The translations under genes were made by a program, and so were the position numbers. Below are positions 4,982 to 57,381 of a DNA stretch of 64,000 nt, in pieces. The notes under the pieces are model-generated. The model made no database searches. It was not told where the DNA came from and was given only the letters and a program-made list of their open reading frames with translations. The stretch is from Candidatus Limnocylindrales bacterium (GTDB lineage: Bacteria > Chloroflexota > Limnocylindria > Limnocylindrales > CSP1-4): assembly GCA_038325875.1 (NCBI GenBank), contig JBBQJL010000007.1:50-64049 (forward strand). The letters are read 5' to 3'. The number at the start of each line of letters is the position of its first letter. Positions within the stretch are counted from its first letter, which is position 1.

Positions 4982-5518
4982 TCAGGCGAGCGCGCCCTGG
5001 GCCTCGCGGATGGCCTCGGCGTCGTACTCGCCGTCCTCGTCGTCCTCGTCCGGGCCACCCACCGAGATCAGCTCGTCCATCGACTCGAGGTAGTCGATGT
5101 AGAGCTTGCCGTCGAGGTGGTCGAGCTCGTGCTGAAGGGCGCGCCCGAGCAACCCGGAGCCGGCCACCTTGTACTTCTTGCCGTGGCGATCCTGGGCGAC
5201 GACCCAGACCCGCTCATGGCGGGTGACATAGGCGACGTAGCCCGGGATCGACAGGCAGCCCTCGAGGTCGCGGTCGTCGCCGTCGGCCCGGACGATCTTC
5301 GGGTTGACCAGCTCGTACAGCCGGCTCTCGACCTCGACCACGCAGGCCTGCTTGGCCTCCCCCAGCTGCGGGGCGGCCAGACCGACACCGGGGGCATGGC
5401 GCATCGAGTCGGTCAGGTCGTCGAGCAGCTCGTGGAGGTACTTGCCGAAGCTGTCGACGGGTTCGCCCTTGAGGCGCAGGCGGGCGTCGCCCAGGAGGAC
5501 GATCGGTCTCACACTCAT
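4982..5518 (-). CDS. def: Peptide deformylase
   Basis: GVGLAAPQLG, EGCLSIPG and HELDHLDG are the three canonical Def motifs. ATG at 5518 (MSVRPIV...). Confidence 0.93.
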   Translation of the reverse strand: MSVRPIVLLGDARLRLKGEPVDSFGKYLHELLDDLTDSMRHAPGVGLAAPQLGEAKQACVVEVESRLYELVNPKIVRADGDDRDLEGCLSIPGYVAYVTRHERVWVVAQDRHGKKYKVAGSGLLGRALQHELDHLDGKLYIDYLESMDELISVGGPDEDDEDGEYDAEAIREAQGALA

Positions 5519-5553
5519 GGGCGCGAGTATACCGAGACCGAGGCCGGGCTCGA

Positions 5554-6171
5554 CTAGCGGCCCGAAACTCCGAACCGGCGGGCGCCCCGGCCGCTCGGCC
5601 GCACCGGCTCGTTGTCCATCCGCAGGCCTCGAGCCCGAAGGACCCGATCGATCTCGGCGCGGAGGCGACTGCCCTGGGGCTGCTTGTCCAACCATTCGAG
5701 GTAGCCGGGGTCGACCCGGCCGATCTCGCCGATCGACCAGCCGATGTGCCGCCCGAAATCGAGGACGGTCCCCGACGCGTTGCCGGGCGGTGGTCCGGCG
5801 CCACCTTCACCGTTCGGGCCGCGCCGCCAGGTCGGTCGGGACGGGTCCGTCGGTCGACTCGAGGCCGACGCCGGCGTGTGGCTGACCGATCCAGGCGTGA
5901 AGCCCATGGGACGGGATCCGGCTGCGGTCCGGGTGGTCGAGTCGAGGATGACCCCGGCCAGGTGGCTTCGATCGTAGGCGGCGCGCCGCTCGGGATCGCC
6001 CAGGGTCTCCCAGGCCGCGTTCAGCTGGGCCATCCGCGTCCCGGCCGAGGGATCGGTCGAGTGGTCCGGGTGGAGGCGCCGGGCGAGGGCGCGATAGGCG
6101 GCCTGGAGGACGTCCTGGCTGGCATCCTGATGGACCTGCAGGATCGCGTACGGGTCGAACTGGTCGGGCAT
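5554..6171 (-). CDS. J-domain protein with C-terminal DUF3820-like module
   Basis: The N-terminus DPYAILQVHQDASQDVLQAAYRALARRLHPD...AYD is a DnaJ J-domain with HPD. The C-terminus FGRHIGWSIGEIGRVDPGYLEWL resembles the DUF3820/ExoX-C-terminal-type motif, from memory. Confidence 0.8.
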   Translation of the reverse strand: MPDQFDPYAILQVHQDASQDVLQAAYRALARRLHPDHSTDPSAGTRMAQLNAAWETLGDPERRAAYDRSHLAGVILDSTTRTAAGSRPMGFTPGSVSHTPASASSRPTDPSRPTWRRGPNGEGGAGPPPGNASGTVLDFGRHIGWSIGEIGRVDPGYLEWLDKQPQGSRLRAEIDRVLRARGLRMDNEPVRPSGRGARRFGVSGR

Positions 6172-52193: not shown

Positions 52194-53873
52194 ATGGATC
52201 TCCACCCCGACGTCCAGGCTCGACTGGACCGCCTCACGCCCGATCAGCGCGCAGCGGCGACCGCGCCACCCGGTCCCGTCCTGTGCCTGGCGCCCGCCGG
52301 AAGCGGCAAGACGACGACGCTGGTGGCCCGGATCGCCTGGCTGGTCGCGACCGGGACCCCGGCCGAACGGATCGCCGCGATCGCCTTCAACAAGCGGGCC
52401 GCGGACGAGCTGGACGAGCGGGTCGGTGCGGCGCTGCTGACCCTGGGCGTTCCGGCCGGGGCGGTCCGTGTCCGCACGTTCCACGCGTTCGGGCGGGAGA
52501 TCCTGCGAGCCGCCGGGCACTCGGTCGAGCCTCTGGTCGAGCGGGACGCCGTCATCCGCTCCGTCCTGCCCGACGCGGACCCGGCCGAGCGGCGCCGGCT
52601 CGACACGGCCTTCTCCACGCTCAAGCTTGAGCATCGGGCCGACCCCGCTGCCATCGACGCCGACCCGGAGGCCGGCCCGCGCGCGCGAGCGTTCGTGGCC
52701 TATGAAGCGGCCGTCCAGGCCACCGGCGGACTCGACTTCGACGACCTGGTGGCGCGCGCCCTGACCCTCCTCGAGACCGACCCCTCCCTGCTTGCCGGCT
52801 GGCGGAGCGCCTGCACGGAACTCCTCGTCGACGAGGTCCAGGACGTCGACCGGTCGCAACTCGAGCTGGCCCTGCTCATCGCCGCACCGACGAACCGGAT
52901 CTTCCTGGTCGGCGACGACGACCAGTCCATCTACGGCTGGCGACTGGCCGACGTACGGCGAGTGCTCGCCCTGGCGACCCAGCTGCCGGGACTGAGCCGC
53001 CACGACCTGATCACCAACTTCCGCTGCCCGGCTCCGGTCGTCGAGCGCGCCGTCCGCCTGATCGAGCACAACACGGAACGGTTCGCCAAGACCATCGTCG
53101 CCCGAACGGGAGCGACGGGTCGGCTCATCCTGGCGCCAGACGCCTCCGACGATGACGAGCGCATTCGGCACGTGATCGCCAGCTGGGCCGCCGTCGGCGC
53201 GGACGCGGATGACTCGACCCGGGCGATCTTGGCCAGGACGAACCGGGAGCTCCTCCCGGCCGCTGCCGTCGCGCTCGAGCTCGAGATCCCGTTCCGGGCC
53301 GAGCGACTGACCCTGCCACTGGAGGACCCGCGCCTCGACGGGATCCTGGCGCATGTGTCAGCCGGCGATCCAGCCACGCCCCTGCTGGTCCGGCTCGGGT
53401 CGCTGCGGGACCGCCCCGCGCCAGCCGAGCCGAGACCAGCCCAGCCGACGCCGGCCGAGCCGGCCGCCACGGACGATCCCCTCCCCTTCGACGAGCTGGT
53501 CGGCACGGTCCTCGCCTGGGCCGCCCCATACCGCGACCCACGCACGTTCGTGGACGCCGTTCGTGACCGGCAGGCCGCACTTCGGCGCCTCCGCTCCGAG
53601 GACGCGACCCTCACCCTGGCCACCGCCCACTCGACCAAGGGCCTCGAGTTCGACCACGTCGCGGTCGTCGACATGGACGACGGTCGATTCCCCAGCCAGC
53701 GCACGCTCGACGAAGCAGACGACCCGCTCCGCGCGCTCGAGGAGGAGCGCCGCCTCGCCTACGTCGCCTGGACCCGGGCCCGCCGCTCGCTCACGCTCGT
53801 CTACGACCCGGCCGCACCGTCGCGGTTCCTGCTCGAGGCATTCGATCCCGAGGAAGTGTCCTGGTCGACCTGA
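52194..53873 (+). CDS. UvrD/REP-family (superfamily 1) DNA helicase, short form
   Basis: LAPAGSGKTTT (Walker A), AFNKRAADEL, LLVDEVQDVD, VGDDDQSIYGWR, and a C-terminal TAHSTKGLEFDHV...AYVAWTRAR. Confidence 0.88.
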   Translation: MDLHPDVQARLDRLTPDQRAAATAPPGPVLCLAPAGSGKTTTLVARIAWLVATGTPAERIAAIAFNKRAADELDERVGAALLTLGVPAGAVRVRTFHAFGREILRAAGHSVEPLVERDAVIRSVLPDADPAERRRLDTAFSTLKLEHRADPAAIDADPEAGPRARAFVAYEAAVQATGGLDFDDLVARALTLLETDPSLLAGWRSACTELLVDEVQDVDRSQLELALLIAAPTNRIFLVGDDDQSIYGWRLADVRRVLALATQLPGLSRHDLITNFRCPAPVVERAVRLIEHNTERFAKTIVARTGATGRLILAPDASDDDERIRHVIASWAAVGADADDSTRAILARTNRELLPAAAVALELEIPFRAERLTLPLEDPRLDGILAHVSAGDPATPLLVRLGSLRDRPAPAEPRPAQPTPAEPAATDDPLPFDELVGTVLAWAAPYRDPRTFVDAVRDRQAALRRLRSEDATLTLATAHSTKGLEFDHVAVVDMDDGRFPSQRTLDEADDPLRALEEERRLAYVAWTRARRSLTLVYDPAAPSRFLLEAFDPEEVSWST

Positions 53874-53902
53874 TCGCGACGCCGCGCCAGGCGAGCGCGG
53901 TA

Positions 53903-53931
53903 TTGACAAATTGGGCCTATTCTCCATAGTG
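53903..53931 (+). promoter_or_regulatory. Candidate sigma-70-type promoter of the HTH gene
   Basis: TTGACA (53903-53908), a 16-17 nt spacer, then CATAGT/ATAGTG, in a locally AT-richer stretch 50 nt upstream of the ATG at 53983. Confidence 0.4.
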
Positions 53932-53982
53932 CGCGATACGCATCAGCACCAAGTTGCATGGCACCCAGACGAGACAAGACAG

Positions 53983-54240
53983 ATGGCACTCGCAGACACA
54001 CCCTCAGCTGAGCTACTCGAGCTTCTGCCCAAACCGTTCTACTCTCCGAGCGAAGTCGCCGCGCTCGCGTCCTTGTCGAATTCGACGATCCTCAACTACA
54101 TCCACGAAGGCCGCATTGCGGCAGTGCGACTCTCGGAGAGAACGTATCGAATCCCACGAAAGGCAGTCATCCGACTCCTCGGTCTTCCGGCTGCCGCGCC
54201 GGAAGTGATCGAAGAGCCGTCTCGAATCGTCGAGTTCTAG
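53983..54240 (+). CDS. Excisionase-family / MerR-like helix-turn-helix DNA-binding protein
   Basis: 85 aa; YSPSEVAALASLSNSTILNYIHEGRIAAVRLSERTYRIPRKAVIRLLG fits the HTH_17 (excisionase-type) pattern. Codon usage is atypical and GC is lower than the surroundings. Confidence 0.7.
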   Translation: MALADTPSAELLELLPKPFYSPSEVAALASLSNSTILNYIHEGRIAAVRLSERTYRIPRKAVIRLLGLPAAAPEVIEEPSRIVEF

Positions 54241-54265
54241 GCTCCTCGCGGCTATCGGCAGCGAG

Positions 54266-54763
54266 ATGGAGGGGGCCGGGGGCTTTGCCGCGCTGACGAG
54301 CGGCGAGATCCGAACCCGACGCGACGGTCTGAGTGACTTCCTCGACGCCTGGGGCGATCTCAGGGTCAGCGACCTCGGTGGACTAGGGACACGTAGATCT
54401 CTCGAGTTCGCTCTCGAAGCGCCCGGTCAAGGTCTGCCAACGGACGTCAAGGTCAGATACAGCGAGTACTACCGCCGCACGAGCGGTGATTGGGATATCA
54501 CCAAGTACCACTACGAGTACTTCGATATCGGCCGCGGCAAACGCCTTGCCTACCACCTGCATGACATCGGACCGCGCAGGATGGTGCCACACGCCCATTG
54601 CGAGGACTCCACGGAGCTGGCCAGTCAGGAGGACGCTCATCACCTTCGAGCCGTCGAGCTCGACTTGCGGGAGGCCCACCAACAGTTCATGAAGTTGTAC
54701 GCCTCCGACAGTGCGCCAGACTGTGCTGAGTTCCTTCCATTGGAGATTTCGCGGATCGGGTAG
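54266..54763 (+). CDS. Hypothetical protein, possibly TumE/DUF6516-like toxin-family
   Basis: 165 aa. KYHYEYFDIGRGKRLAYHLHDIGPRRMVPHAHCED resembles my recollection of the DUF6516 Y-H-[YW]...H...PH.H core. Uses rare codons (cta, aga, agg, ttg). Confidence 0.55.
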   Translation: MEGAGGFAALTSGEIRTRRDGLSDFLDAWGDLRVSDLGGLGTRRSLEFALEAPGQGLPTDVKVRYSEYYRRTSGDWDITKYHYEYFDIGRGKRLAYHLHDIGPRRMVPHAHCEDSTELASQEDAHHLRAVELDLREAHQQFMKLYASDSAPDCAEFLPLEISRIG

Positions 54764-54804
54764 CGTCCAAGGTTCCGACGAAGGTGTTCACCGAGGGCAC
54801 TTCC

Positions 54805-54846
54805 GCCTGGGCCGCCCCGTACCGCGACTCACGCTCGTTCGCGGAC
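54805..54846 (+). repeat. Displaced copy (38/42 nt) of helicase gene segment 53514-53555
   Basis: gcctgggccgccccGtaccgcgacTcacgcTcgttcgCggac vs gcctgggccgccccAtaccgcgacCcacgcAcgttcgTggac. Both encode AWAAPYRD.R.F.D. Confidence 0.75.
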
Positions 54847-54855
54847 TTGAGGCAT

Positions 54856-55197
54856 TCAGCACGAACGAGCTCCGGACGAGTACGCTCTAGGGCCCCGGCT
54901 CCGCGTCCGGACCGCGATCCCTCGGTGAGGAGGCCAGCCGAGCCGGAGCGACCGGGGGGCTTCCCCCGGGTCGACCCGATCGCGGGGACGCGCCATGCGA
55001 GCGACCAGCCACAGACCCACGGCTGCCCCAAGCGCATCGATCCCGACGTCGAGCACAGCCGGATGGCGGGTCGGGCTGAACGCCTGGTGGATCTCGTCTG
55101 ACCCCGCGTACGCCACGGCGATCGCGAACGCGGCGGACTCGACGAGGTGCTCATCGCGCCCGGGCGCCGAGAGTACAGGCCGAGGATCGCCTCCAGC
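54856..55197 (-). pseudogene. VanZ-like C-terminal fragment (last two TM helices), probably a remnant
   Basis: ESAAFAIAVAYAGSDEIHQAFSPTRHPAVLDVGIDALGAAVGLWLVA fits the VanZ E..Q.f.p.R....D...d..Ga..G motif. It is open only from the TGA at 55198-55200 and lacks the N-terminal half. Confidence 0.4.
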
Positions 55198-56940
55198 TCA
55201 GCGCTTCGGGATGAGCGGCGGGGTGACGGCGATGACCGGGGCCGGCGCGGCGGCCGGCGTCGCGGTCGCCAGGGCAGTCGTGCCACGGACGGTGCTCACC
55301 GGCAGCCAGCGGTCGAGCGAACCGGACGCGTACGCTCCGTAGAGCGCGATGCCAGCCGCCACCAGGACCAGCACCACTAGGAATAGCAGGACGCGCCCTC
55401 GGCCGCGGCGCTTCTTGGCGGGAGATCTCGAGGCCTCCCCGGTTACGGTCTGGTTCGTGGTGTCGTCCGGCCACCGGCTGAGTCGGACGACCGTCGGCGG
55501 CGCGGCTAGGGGTGCCGTTGCCGGCAGCCGAGCCCGGGTGGCGGCGACCGGCGTTGCCCCGCCGAACGCCATGGCGGGCACGAGCTGGGGTTCCGGCTCG
55601 GGTTCCGCCACCGCGGCTGGGGAGTCCGCAACCGGTTCCGCCTCTGGGGCCTGGACCTGCGCCTCGGGTGCGTTGTCGGCCACGGCGATCTGGGCCTGAG
55701 CCTGCGCCTCGGGTGCGTTGTCGGCCACGGCGATCTGGGCCTGAGCCCGCGCCTCGGGCGCGCTGTCGGCCACGGCGATCTGGGCCTGGGCCGTTGGTTC
55801 GATATCGGTTGGTGGGATGGTCGCCATGACCGCCGCGGCGAGCGCCGGCTTGACCGGGCTCGGCGTGGCCGATGGGTCCATCGGCGGGAGGATCGACATC
55901 ATCACCGAGACTGCCGTGGCCTTCCTCCAAGCCGTCGACGGTGGAGGCGTCGCCTCGAATTCCTTCGGCGGCACCTTGGCGAACAGCTCGTTGTCGAGGA
56001 GTTCCCTCGAGACCGGATCGGATCCGTTTGCCGCGCTCGCGGATGATGCCGAAACGGTCGTGGGGACGGTTGATGGGAACACGCCGACCAGATCGCGCAT
56101 CGGCCTGGTGACCTCCGGCGCGGATTCGACGGTCGGCGGCGCGAGCTCCTCCTGGGCAACGACGGGCTCAGGCGGATCGGCTGCCCGGGGCTGCTCGTCC
56201 TGTTCAGTGGCGGGCTGGGCCTCGGCCTGGGTGGGCTTGGGCTCGTACGCCGAGGCGACGATCGGCGCGGGCTCGGGCTCGTACGGTGAGCTTGCGGTCG
56301 GCGTGGACTCGGGCTCGTAGGCGAAGCCGGCGGCGTAGGCGAACTCCCGCGCGGGCCTGGTCGGTGGCGGCTGGCTGACGCCATCGGCCTCGGCGCTTGC
56401 CTCGGCCTCAGCGGCCTGGGCAGTGTTGACACTCAGCCTGGGACGGTCGCGACCGTTCGTTGCTGCCTTCGGCGTGCGGTAGCGGCTGCACGTCGGGTAC
56501 TCGCTCGACAGGCAATAGGTGCGCTGGTGAGCCGGCTCGATCGTCGCCGGCTTCAACCCCGCGTGGCAGCGATGCGCCTGGGCGGGGAAGCTGAACCGCG
56601 TCCTCGCGTCATCAGGGAGCCCGAGGTACGGACAGCCCGCGGCTTCTGCGGAGGCTGCGAGGGGCTCGGACTCGGCTGCGATGGGCTCGGACTCGGGCTC
56701 GACCGCGATGGGCTCGGGTCCGTTCGCTTCTGCGATCGACGCGTGGTAGCGGTCGCACGTCGGGTACTCGCTCGAGAGGCAATACTGGCCCTGGAAGGAC
56801 AGGTCGATCGTCCTCACCTCGGACCCGGCGCGGCATCGATGCGCCTCGGCGGGAGAGAGGTAGCGTGTCCGCTCTTCGTCGACCGTTCCGAGGAACGGAC
56901 AGGCAACCGGGCGCGCGGTGATCGGATCGATCTGGCTCAT
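55198..56940 (-). CDS. Single-pass membrane protein with two N-terminal four-Cys modules (CP[FY]LG...HRC...YCLSSEYPTC), long acidic/Pro-rich repeat linker and C-terminal TM
   Basis: The two modules are at aa ~14-66 and ~103-155 counted from the ATG at 56940. 45-nt tandem repeats x3 (AQAQIAVADNAPEAQ) lie at ~55651-55786. KKRRGRGR is followed by the TM helix VLLFLVVLVLVAAGIALYGAYA near the C-terminus. Confidence 0.75.
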   Translation of the reverse strand: MSQIDPITARPVACPFLGTVDEERTRYLSPAEAHRCRAGSEVRTIDLSFQGQYCLSSEYPTCDRYHASIAEANGPEPIAVEPESEPIAAESEPLAASAEAAGCPYLGLPDDARTRFSFPAQAHRCHAGLKPATIEPAHQRTYCLSSEYPTCSRYRTPKAATNGRDRPRLSVNTAQAAEAEASAEADGVSQPPPTRPAREFAYAAGFAYEPESTPTASSPYEPEPAPIVASAYEPKPTQAEAQPATEQDEQPRAADPPEPVVAQEELAPPTVESAPEVTRPMRDLVGVFPSTVPTTVSASSASAANGSDPVSRELLDNELFAKVPPKEFEATPPPSTAWRKATAVSVMMSILPPMDPSATPSPVKPALAAAVMATIPPTDIEPTAQAQIAVADSAPEARAQAQIAVADNAPEAQAQAQIAVADNAPEAQVQAPEAEPVADSPAAVAEPEPEPQLVPAMAFGGATPVAATRARLPATAPLAAPPTVVRLSRWPDDTTNQTVTGEASRSPAKKRRGRGRVLLFLVVLVLVAAGIALYGAYASGSLDRWLPVSTVRGTTALATATPAAAPAPVIAVTPPLIPKR

Positions 56941-57036
56941 ATGTTCAGATAGTACGCGCTGGGGGAAGCCCGGCACCAGCACGATCCGGTCGTCCAGGCT
57001 CAGGGCACAGCCGCCGCCCTCCGCGCCGGGACCGAA

Positions 57037-57381
57037 TCAGCGGGACCGTTCGTACCTGGCCAGCTCGCGAAGAAGCCGATCGATCGCCTCGAGGAACGGC
57101 TCGGTGACCTCGGCCGGGAGGGCATCGCGGATGGAGTCCTTCGGGCCGTAGGCCGACCGGGATCGAACGGCGGCCCGTCGAACGTCGATGAGATCGCCGT
57201 CGCGGAGGACATCCGGGACCCCGCCCAGCTCCCTGGCCCAGCGCGCCGCTCCCCGATCCGCCACCCGCTCCGCGGCGACCTCGAGCAGCCGATCACCCGC
57301 CCGGGCCGCGGCCAGGGCGCGTTCATCGATGAGTGGGATCTCATGCCGTGCGGGGCCACGGGCACGGGTGGCGTCGGCCAT
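57037..57381 (-). CDS. Hypothetical protein (114 aa) immediately downstream of uvrA
   Basis: High GC3. The ATG lies 2 nt after the uvrA stop. No family recognised. Confidence 0.6.
   Translation of the reverse strand: MADATRARGPARHEIPLIDERALAAARAGDRLLEVAAERVADRGAARWARELGGVPDVLRDGDLIDVRRAAVRSRSAYGPKDSIRDALPAEVTEPFLEAIDRLLRELARYERSR

Follow-up and report, generated by a model that had tools for sequence, protein, structure and literature searches.

Integrative elements and integrase-less cis-mobilizable elements (CIMEs) occupy the 3' ends of protein-coding genes, such as ICESt1 and ICESt3 at fda in Streptococcus thermophilus. In a Campbell-type single crossover, a circular molecule that bears part of a chromosomal gene integrates, and the homologous segment becomes duplicated on both sides. 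Replacement and additive flexible genomic islands are also found at conserved loci, e.g., polysaccharide clusters swapped between strains. For rhs, contact-dependent inhibition (CDI) and type VI secretion system (T6SS) effector loci, displacement of the C-terminal (3') end by homology-facilitated illegitimate recombination is a proposed scheme, with orphaned 3' ends as its product (PMC5361080, which cites Jackson, 2009; de Vries and Wackernagel, 2002; Prudhomme, 2002). Here we compare with these systems a locus within 64,000 nucleotides (nt) of contig JBBQJL010000007.1 from Candidatus Limnocylindrales bacterium (this whole stretch is referred to as the window, and its genome as G000). At this locus, the 3' end of a gene for a UvrD-like superfamily-1 (SF1) helicase is duplicated around two inserted genes, one for a helix-turn-helix (HTH) protein of the HTH_17 family and one, orf165, for a protein of 165 amino acids (aa). 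The interval between the helicase gene and p114/uvrA is probably a recombination hotspot in this Chloroflexota (Limnocylindria-like) genus, where integrase-free additive recombination would have introduced a cassette that is probably toxin-antitoxin-like and belongs to an undescribed family.

The helicase gene, the target of the insertion, is intact. Its product carries both an N-terminal UvrD-helicase domain and a UvrD_C domain in a Pfam search, and scores far under the NCBIfam equivalog cut-offs for UvrD, PcrA and Rep; it is therefore a distinct short paralogue, the PcrA orthologue of G000 being encoded elsewhere in the genome. Codons about 441-454 of the gene recur downstream as an imperfect repeat, identical at 39/43 positions (Table 1). 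A sequence-only reading of this DNA had given it as a 42-nt repeat, 53514-53555 and 54805-54846, with 38/42 identity, and the repeat is real: when the downstream 3.1 kb was resampled 200 times under a first-order Markov model, the top 42-nt match had 26.8 identical positions on average and at most 30, versus the 38 observed. The repeat occupies just these two places, with no third copy in the whole 2.99-Mb assembly. The weakly similar sequence that had been noticed after the second copy also proved genuine. It contains, before a stop codon, LEAFSTNELRTSTL, which resembles the C-termini of related helicases and lies in a frame different from that of the preceding repeat copy, AWAAPYRDSRSFAD; the shift is apparently the result of an internal deletion of about 280 nt. 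Farther on, a second repeat (32/38 identical; blastn E-value, E, of 2.7e-7) matches the present end of the gene, from the final helicase codons through the stop codon to 24 nt past it. From the C-terminus and this second repeat it follows that the second copy spans 54804 to about 55003. It is a decayed version of the last 0.4 kb of the helicase gene with an interior short by about 280 nt, its best-preserved part is the 43-nt repeat, and it does not reach upstream into the remaining helicase sequence. An independent Logan contig of the source run spans 53737-55093 with zero differences, and an assembly artefact was therefore ruled out.

The DNA between the two copies differs in composition from its surroundings. 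The AT-richer stretch that the sequence-only reading had placed at about 53880-54780 was borne out by the G+C content of 53898-54803, which is 0.602 versus 0.708 for the window. Locally, G+C runs at 0.55-0.65 between about 53850 and 54800 versus 0.70-0.77 on either side, and the drop begins exactly where the first unit ends and lasts until the second one starts. The codon usage, described earlier as atypical, departs in the same stretch: G+C at third codon positions (GC3) is 0.74 in orf165, versus 0.89 in the helicase gene and 0.84 in the next gene.

The locus was compared with that of 18 other genomes of the same genus (19 with G000). Synteny is conserved in these 18, with uvrC ... helicase on the plus strand converging on p114-uvrA on the minus strand, and helicase orthologues occur throughout the genus at 70-79% identity. 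Eight genomes (G001, G004, G005, G008, G010, G013, G015, and G016) have empty sites, in which no more than about 120 nt separate the stop codons of the helicase gene and p114. The two-gene stretch is thus an insertion, as had been supposed from the window alone, and the displaced original 3' end persists on its far side as a decaying remnant, contiguous with the resident flank here and likewise in G003, G012, and G017. Helicase 3' duplications around inserted DNA were found in seven other genomes, so that remnants are present in 8/19 of the genus. The duplicate measures 392 nt at 94% identity in G012, 370 nt at 90.5% in G014, 358 nt at 95.5% in G017, and 232-271 nt at 84-85% in G002, G003, and G007; that of G009 is decayed (149 nt at 74%). 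The cargo is an HTH_31 gene, an unknown gene and a HepT-like RNase gene in G012, a 28-kb glycosyltransferase/polysaccharide cluster plus a four-Cys protein in G014 and G017, and a short relative of the four-Cys protein in G002, G003, G007, and G009. The left edge of the duplicated segment shifts over about 150 nt between event groups, and there is therefore no common core.

In a tree built on 280 shared columns of the helicase 3' copies, the remnant of G012 is placed with that genome's own helicase (support 0.99), a single group unites the copies from G014 and G017 (support 0.94), and the remnants of G002 and G003, 89.5% identical to each other, cluster together and apart from their own helicases. 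These groupings indicate several independent events of different ages, which share one anchor gene and have unrelated cargo and variable junctions. Alternatively, the 3' end of the helicase gene could have been duplicated in tandem only once, in the ancestor of the genus, with later turnover of the cargo, gene conversion keeping the copies alike, and repeat-mediated deletion giving rise to the “empty” genomes. The presence of remnants in 8/19 genomes would fit such an origin, an empty site would be cleanly regenerated if the repeats recombined, and the orthology of the G002 and G003 remnants makes at least one event old. We regard this history as unlikely, since the left edges lie as much as about 150 nt apart even in well-preserved sequence, the cargo is unrelated between groups, repeated gene conversion would be needed for the G012 and G014/G017 copies to group with their own helicases, and at least eight independent precise losses would have to be assumed, with many more steps overall.

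Recurrent integrase-free addition at this anchor is the reading that we prefer, and its route, which we infer from comparative anatomy, may be outlined as follows. A DNA fragment in which the 0.86-kb cassette followed the 3' part of a helicase gene, itself derived from this or a closely related lineage, would have been added without an integrase, one end recombining homologously within the helicase gene and the other becoming attached to the resident helicase by illegitimate joining at about codon 441. This one-sided homologous plus illegitimate event would correspond to homology-facilitated illegitimate recombination (“3'-end displacement”). The donor would have supplied a working 3' end, leaving the helicase complete, and the resident end (54804 to about 55003) would have been pushed downstream, later losing about 280 nt and its reading frame. 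The same topology could have arisen by a single crossover with a circularised fragment.

The displacement proposed for rhs, CDI and T6SS loci resembles this locus in the homology anchor within a conserved gene, in the new 3' end accompanied by extra genes, in the old end orphaned downstream, and in being integrase-free and recurrent at one locus. It differs in that the end acquired here is a like-for-like end of a housekeeping helicase and not a new toxin domain, with a payload of unrelated genes. Campbell-type integration gives exactly the topology seen here, but would depend on a hypothetical circle of about 1.3 kb as intermediate. As in flexible genomic islands, a single conserved interval holds different cargo by species, including the 28-kb island of G014 and G017; unlike in those islands, truncated copies of flanking genes remain, and the process is therefore additive and not a clean double-crossover exchange. 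The donors may have been the same locus of related strains, in which case fragments of flank genes would be expected at the far ends of the inserts. Such fragments are present as a C-terminal 15-mer of uvrA in G012 and a 3' fragment of p114 (37 aa, 81%) in G002.

Several of these intervals deserve a separate description. The 28-kb island (G014:C8 146-190 kb; G017:C5 126-170 kb) holds glycosyltransferases together with flippase-like, chain-length-determinant-like and heptose-pathway genes, is bracketed by the helicase gene and its 358-370-nt 3'-end duplicate, and has no recombinase. In the oriented interval of G012:C34, the uvrA C-terminus fragment is perfect over its 15 aa (5624-5668), the HepT-like RNase toxin gene lies at 5197-5613, and the insert contains extra short helicase-end copies (38 nt at 100%). 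The p114 fragment of G002 (oriented interval of G002:C10, 4040-4150) stands beside the four-Cys gene, about 2.4 kb from the intact p114, and is a second kind of flank-gene scar at the same hotspot. The helicase/short gene/remnant arrangement is found twice in the metagenome-assembled genome G003 (G003:C11 1786-4578 and G003:C14 7172-9945), both helicase readings containing one in-frame TAG, which suggests strain heterogeneity or a duplicated region in the assembly. Furthermore, the helicase-p114 interval of G006, G011, G009, G007, G002, and G017 (e.g., interval L022, 2233-4425) holds a set of three genes, for a TasA/camelysin-like signal-peptide protein, an S26 signal peptidase and an RTX-repeat protein.

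The sequence-only reading had interpreted the locus as the attachment (att)-like scar of an integrating element. Its core, an insertion that displaced the old end of the gene, stands, and none of the findings that it had named as grounds for rejection turned up; the att scar does not stand, and site-specific integration is disfavoured. Stated in full, the idea would be that a CIME-like remnant, with its integrase lost or acting in trans, had targeted the helicase 3' end and supplied a replacement end, the HTH_17 protein being its excisionase. The lower-G+C insert is indeed flanked by direct repeats of the target 3' end with the helicase gene restored, the HTH protein passes the cut-off of the “excisionase family” domain TIGR01764 and matches PHROG excisionases, and recombinases of the tyrosine and serine types are encoded elsewhere in G000 and could act in trans. 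The eight genomes with occupied sites were searched with PF00589 (Phage_integrase) and PF00239 (Resolvase): none of the eight helicase-uvrA intervals has a tyrosine or serine recombinase, in agreement with the lack of an integrase remarked on earlier for the window, though there are many elsewhere in those genomes. Junction positions vary between events, the genome has no further att-like copy, and no conserved terminal repeats or ends of the cassette were found across eight unrelated contexts. Besides, the duplicates of G012, G014, and G017 are host-lineage sequence at 90-95% identity, which the att copy of a travelling element would not be, and the HTH gene is paired with orf165, with no recombinase called among its neighbours in the annotated contexts. 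Excision or empty-site joints were absent from the Logan contigs of three runs, which drop rare variants; joints listed in public runs come from conserved helicase motifs of other organisms. On this evidence an integrative-element remnant is an improbable explanation. CIMEs of the ICESt1/ICESt3 type share with this locus the foreign DNA between direct repeats of the target 3' end and a gene that remains functional, but here the occupied sites lack a recombinase, the junctions are variable, the repeats are long, diverged and of the host lineage, and there are no conserved ends.

Table 1. Features of the helicase-p114 region, in window coordinates.
Feature	Position	Strand	Evidence or remark
UvrD-like SF1 helicase, 559 aa, intact, insertion target	52194..53873	+	Pfam UvrD-helicase E 5e-50, UvrD_C E 1.5e-22
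Repeat, copy 1: helicase codons about 441-454, within the working gene	53513..53555	+	Repeat family D5
Second repeat, copy 1: final codons of the helicase with the stop codon, plus the next 24 nt; the duplicated unit ends here on its right side	53860..53897	+	Repeat family D8
Cassette promoter: TTGACA, 16-nt spacer, CATAGT	53903..53930	+	Sole promoter-like site in 1.6 kb; shuffles give 0.1
HTH_17 (excisionase/MerR-type) DNA-binding protein, 85 aa	53983..54240	+	Pfam HTH_17 E 4.4e-9; TIGR01764 E 4.9e-9; PHROG excisionase families E 1.6e-6
orf165, 165-aa protein of an undescribed family, putative toxin/effector	54266..54763	+	
Repeat, copy 2: first part of the displaced 3' remnant of the helicase, AWAAPYRDSRSFAD	54804..54846	+	Repeat family D5
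Remnant of the old helicase C-terminus, LEAFSTNELRTSTL and stop	54847..54890	+	Frame translations; comparison with C-termini of relatives
Second repeat, copy 2: old sequence 3' of the helicase; end of the remnant	54966..55003	+	Repeat family D8
VanZ-like gene, 3' fragment, resident context right of the remnant	54856..55116	-	Pfam VanZ E 6.9e-7, profile positions 86-123 of 126 only
Four-Cys membrane protein, 594 aa, resident	55198-56982	-	
p114, 114-aa uvrA-linked gene, resident	57037-57381	-	Adjoins the helicase gene in empty-site genomes

The resident genes to the right of the remnant are, in order, the VanZ-like fragment, the four-Cys gene, p114 and uvrA, all on the minus strand. The VanZ-like fragment represents the last third of the domain and is squeezed in next to the helicase remnant on one side and the four-Cys stop codon on the other, its end overlapping copy 2 of the second repeat.

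The cargo of the window is an intact two-gene cassette of 0.86 kb and 60% G+C with its own promoter. The TTGACA box pointed out in the sequence-only reading lies at 53903 and belongs to the only such site in 1.6 kb. Across eight independent, otherwise unrelated contexts, the conserved DNA begins exactly at the -35 box and ends with the orf165 stop codon: TTGACAA, much of the spacer and the -10 region are invariant, and nothing is conserved upstream of the -35 box. The conserved promoter and spacer are probably the operator of the HTH protein, itself a putative antitoxin or autoregulator. At the level of single positions, 53903-53945 comprises TTGACAA, the spacer, a TATAGT-like box and GATA, with many invariant positions though the proteins are only 50-71% identical. 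The HTH_17 gene lies directly upstream of the orf165 homologue and in the same orientation in nearly all contexts, with a gap of 20-25 nt or an overlap; the sole exception is a truncated orf165 copy that has no HTH match upstream. In the metagenome of a different study, a 262-nt contig aligns to window positions 53909-54167 with four substitutions and two gaps, and the helicase flanks were not seen there, at low depth.

The 165-aa protein has no match in Pfam, NCBIfam, PHROGs or PADLOC, and none by sequence in the PDB. Its 73 homologues (50-71% identity) are all unnamed, and more distant ones occur in the same family of genomes. H97, H99, H109, H111, and C112 are invariant in the alignment of close homologues; in a wider alignment H97, H99, H109, and C112 still hold, and H111 is present in at least 90% of the sequences. 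An AlphaFold2 (AF2) model with a predicted local distance difference test (pLDDT) score of 89 consists of a helix, six long antiparallel strands and a helix, and this fold has no significant match in the PDB or BFVD. Two tandem copies of the gene are found in JACDAV010000256.1 (271-744 and 1198-1671), 56 and 55% identical to that of the window.

Among described families, the closest parallel is the TumE-TumA superfamily (DUF6516, PF20126), which is bicistronic with the DNA-binding partner encoded upstream (PMC10584680). The AF2-predicted architecture fits the published description of TumE (PMC10584680): an alpha+beta fold with two helices on an antiparallel sheet and no PDB match, and a His-rich motif after a YxY strand. 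The motif itself differs, being HxH, 9-12 residues and HxHC here, and D, 9-13 residues and HxH in TumE (invariant D84, H98, and H100), and the partner here is an HTH_17 protein. PF20126 found no match among 36 members of the 165-aa family at E up to 10, and nothing in a six-frame search of G000; with this model, true TumE genes are recovered in 21/401 genomes of the phylum. With hhalign, a broad profile aligned full-length with 12 TumE sequences over 116 colinear columns (E 0.0033) at a probability of only 9.7%, and a narrower profile gave 0.7%. The 165-aa protein may be a very distant, unproven relative of TumE.

The pair has a patchy distribution in Chloroflexota, being present in 7/61 related genomes, and often lies among toxin-antitoxin genes: near it are genes for PemK, VapBC (two pairs), HicAB and Fic, and one for an IS21 transposase. 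By gene order and neighbourhood, the cassette is most likely a type II toxin-antitoxin-like module, in which the HTH protein would be both repressor and antitoxin and the 165-aa protein the effector; such a module, if this is true, would help the insertion persist. In several species of another Chloroflexota clade, the pair is stably located between pcrA and ligA (groEL ... pcrA - pair - ligA - gatCA). No convincing pcrA 3'-end remnant was found behind the cassette in this pcrA-adjacent lineage, and the pcrA-ligA spacer of G000 has no cassette. The proximity to an SF1 helicase gene in two lineages, among roughly 14 contexts, exceeds in our view the chance expectation, and could mean that the cassette lies behind the helicase since the pair works with, or targets, UvrD/PcrA-type helicase genes. 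This is highly improbable, given that most contexts have no helicase nearby, that G000 leaves its own pcrA-ligA spacer free, and that the helicase site of the genus accepts quite different cargo too. In a broader form, by which either the HTH_17/165-aa pair or the recombination that moves it would be specifically tied to the 3' ends of SF1 (UvrD/PcrA-type) helicase genes, the proposal is very unlikely; were it true, the pair would represent a so far undescribed family of His/Cys-motif effectors, tied to repair helicases by function or by targeting, and not a generic toxin-antitoxin module that had reached a hotspot.

Several observations weigh against a hotspot of integrase-free addition carrying a toxin-antitoxin-like cassette. 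The insert of the window has no flank-gene fragment at its right end, and the remnant is so decayed that its clearly alignable parts amount to only 43 + 44 + 38 nt. No donor or near-identical relative was found, the closest helicase being 78-79% identical, and a collection of 5.8 billion proteins contained no helicase relative above 78%. A mosaic origin of the helicase, predicted to combine a recipient 5' part with a donor 3' part, is not visible, as sliding-window identity to 14 relatives, none of them close enough, is flat. An old duplication with cargo turnover and gene conversion would yield similar trees. Finally, gene order and neighbourhood are the sole basis for the toxin-antitoxin function, and the pair between pcrA and ligA has a near-native G+C content, less typical of a selfish module.

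The locus offers a clean natural example of how, in an uncultured genus of Chloroflexota, accessory DNA can be added again and again without an integrase at the 3' end of a housekeeping gene, which serves as the anchor. What is added varies from a 0.9-kb cassette to a 28-kb polysaccharide island, and the displaced 3' end is a datable scar of each event. It also serves as a warning that direct repeats of gene ends are not always att sites. The cargo, in turn, defines an uncharacterised protein family with a His4-Cys motif, predicted to be well folded, which makes a plausible new candidate among toxin-antitoxin or defence families.

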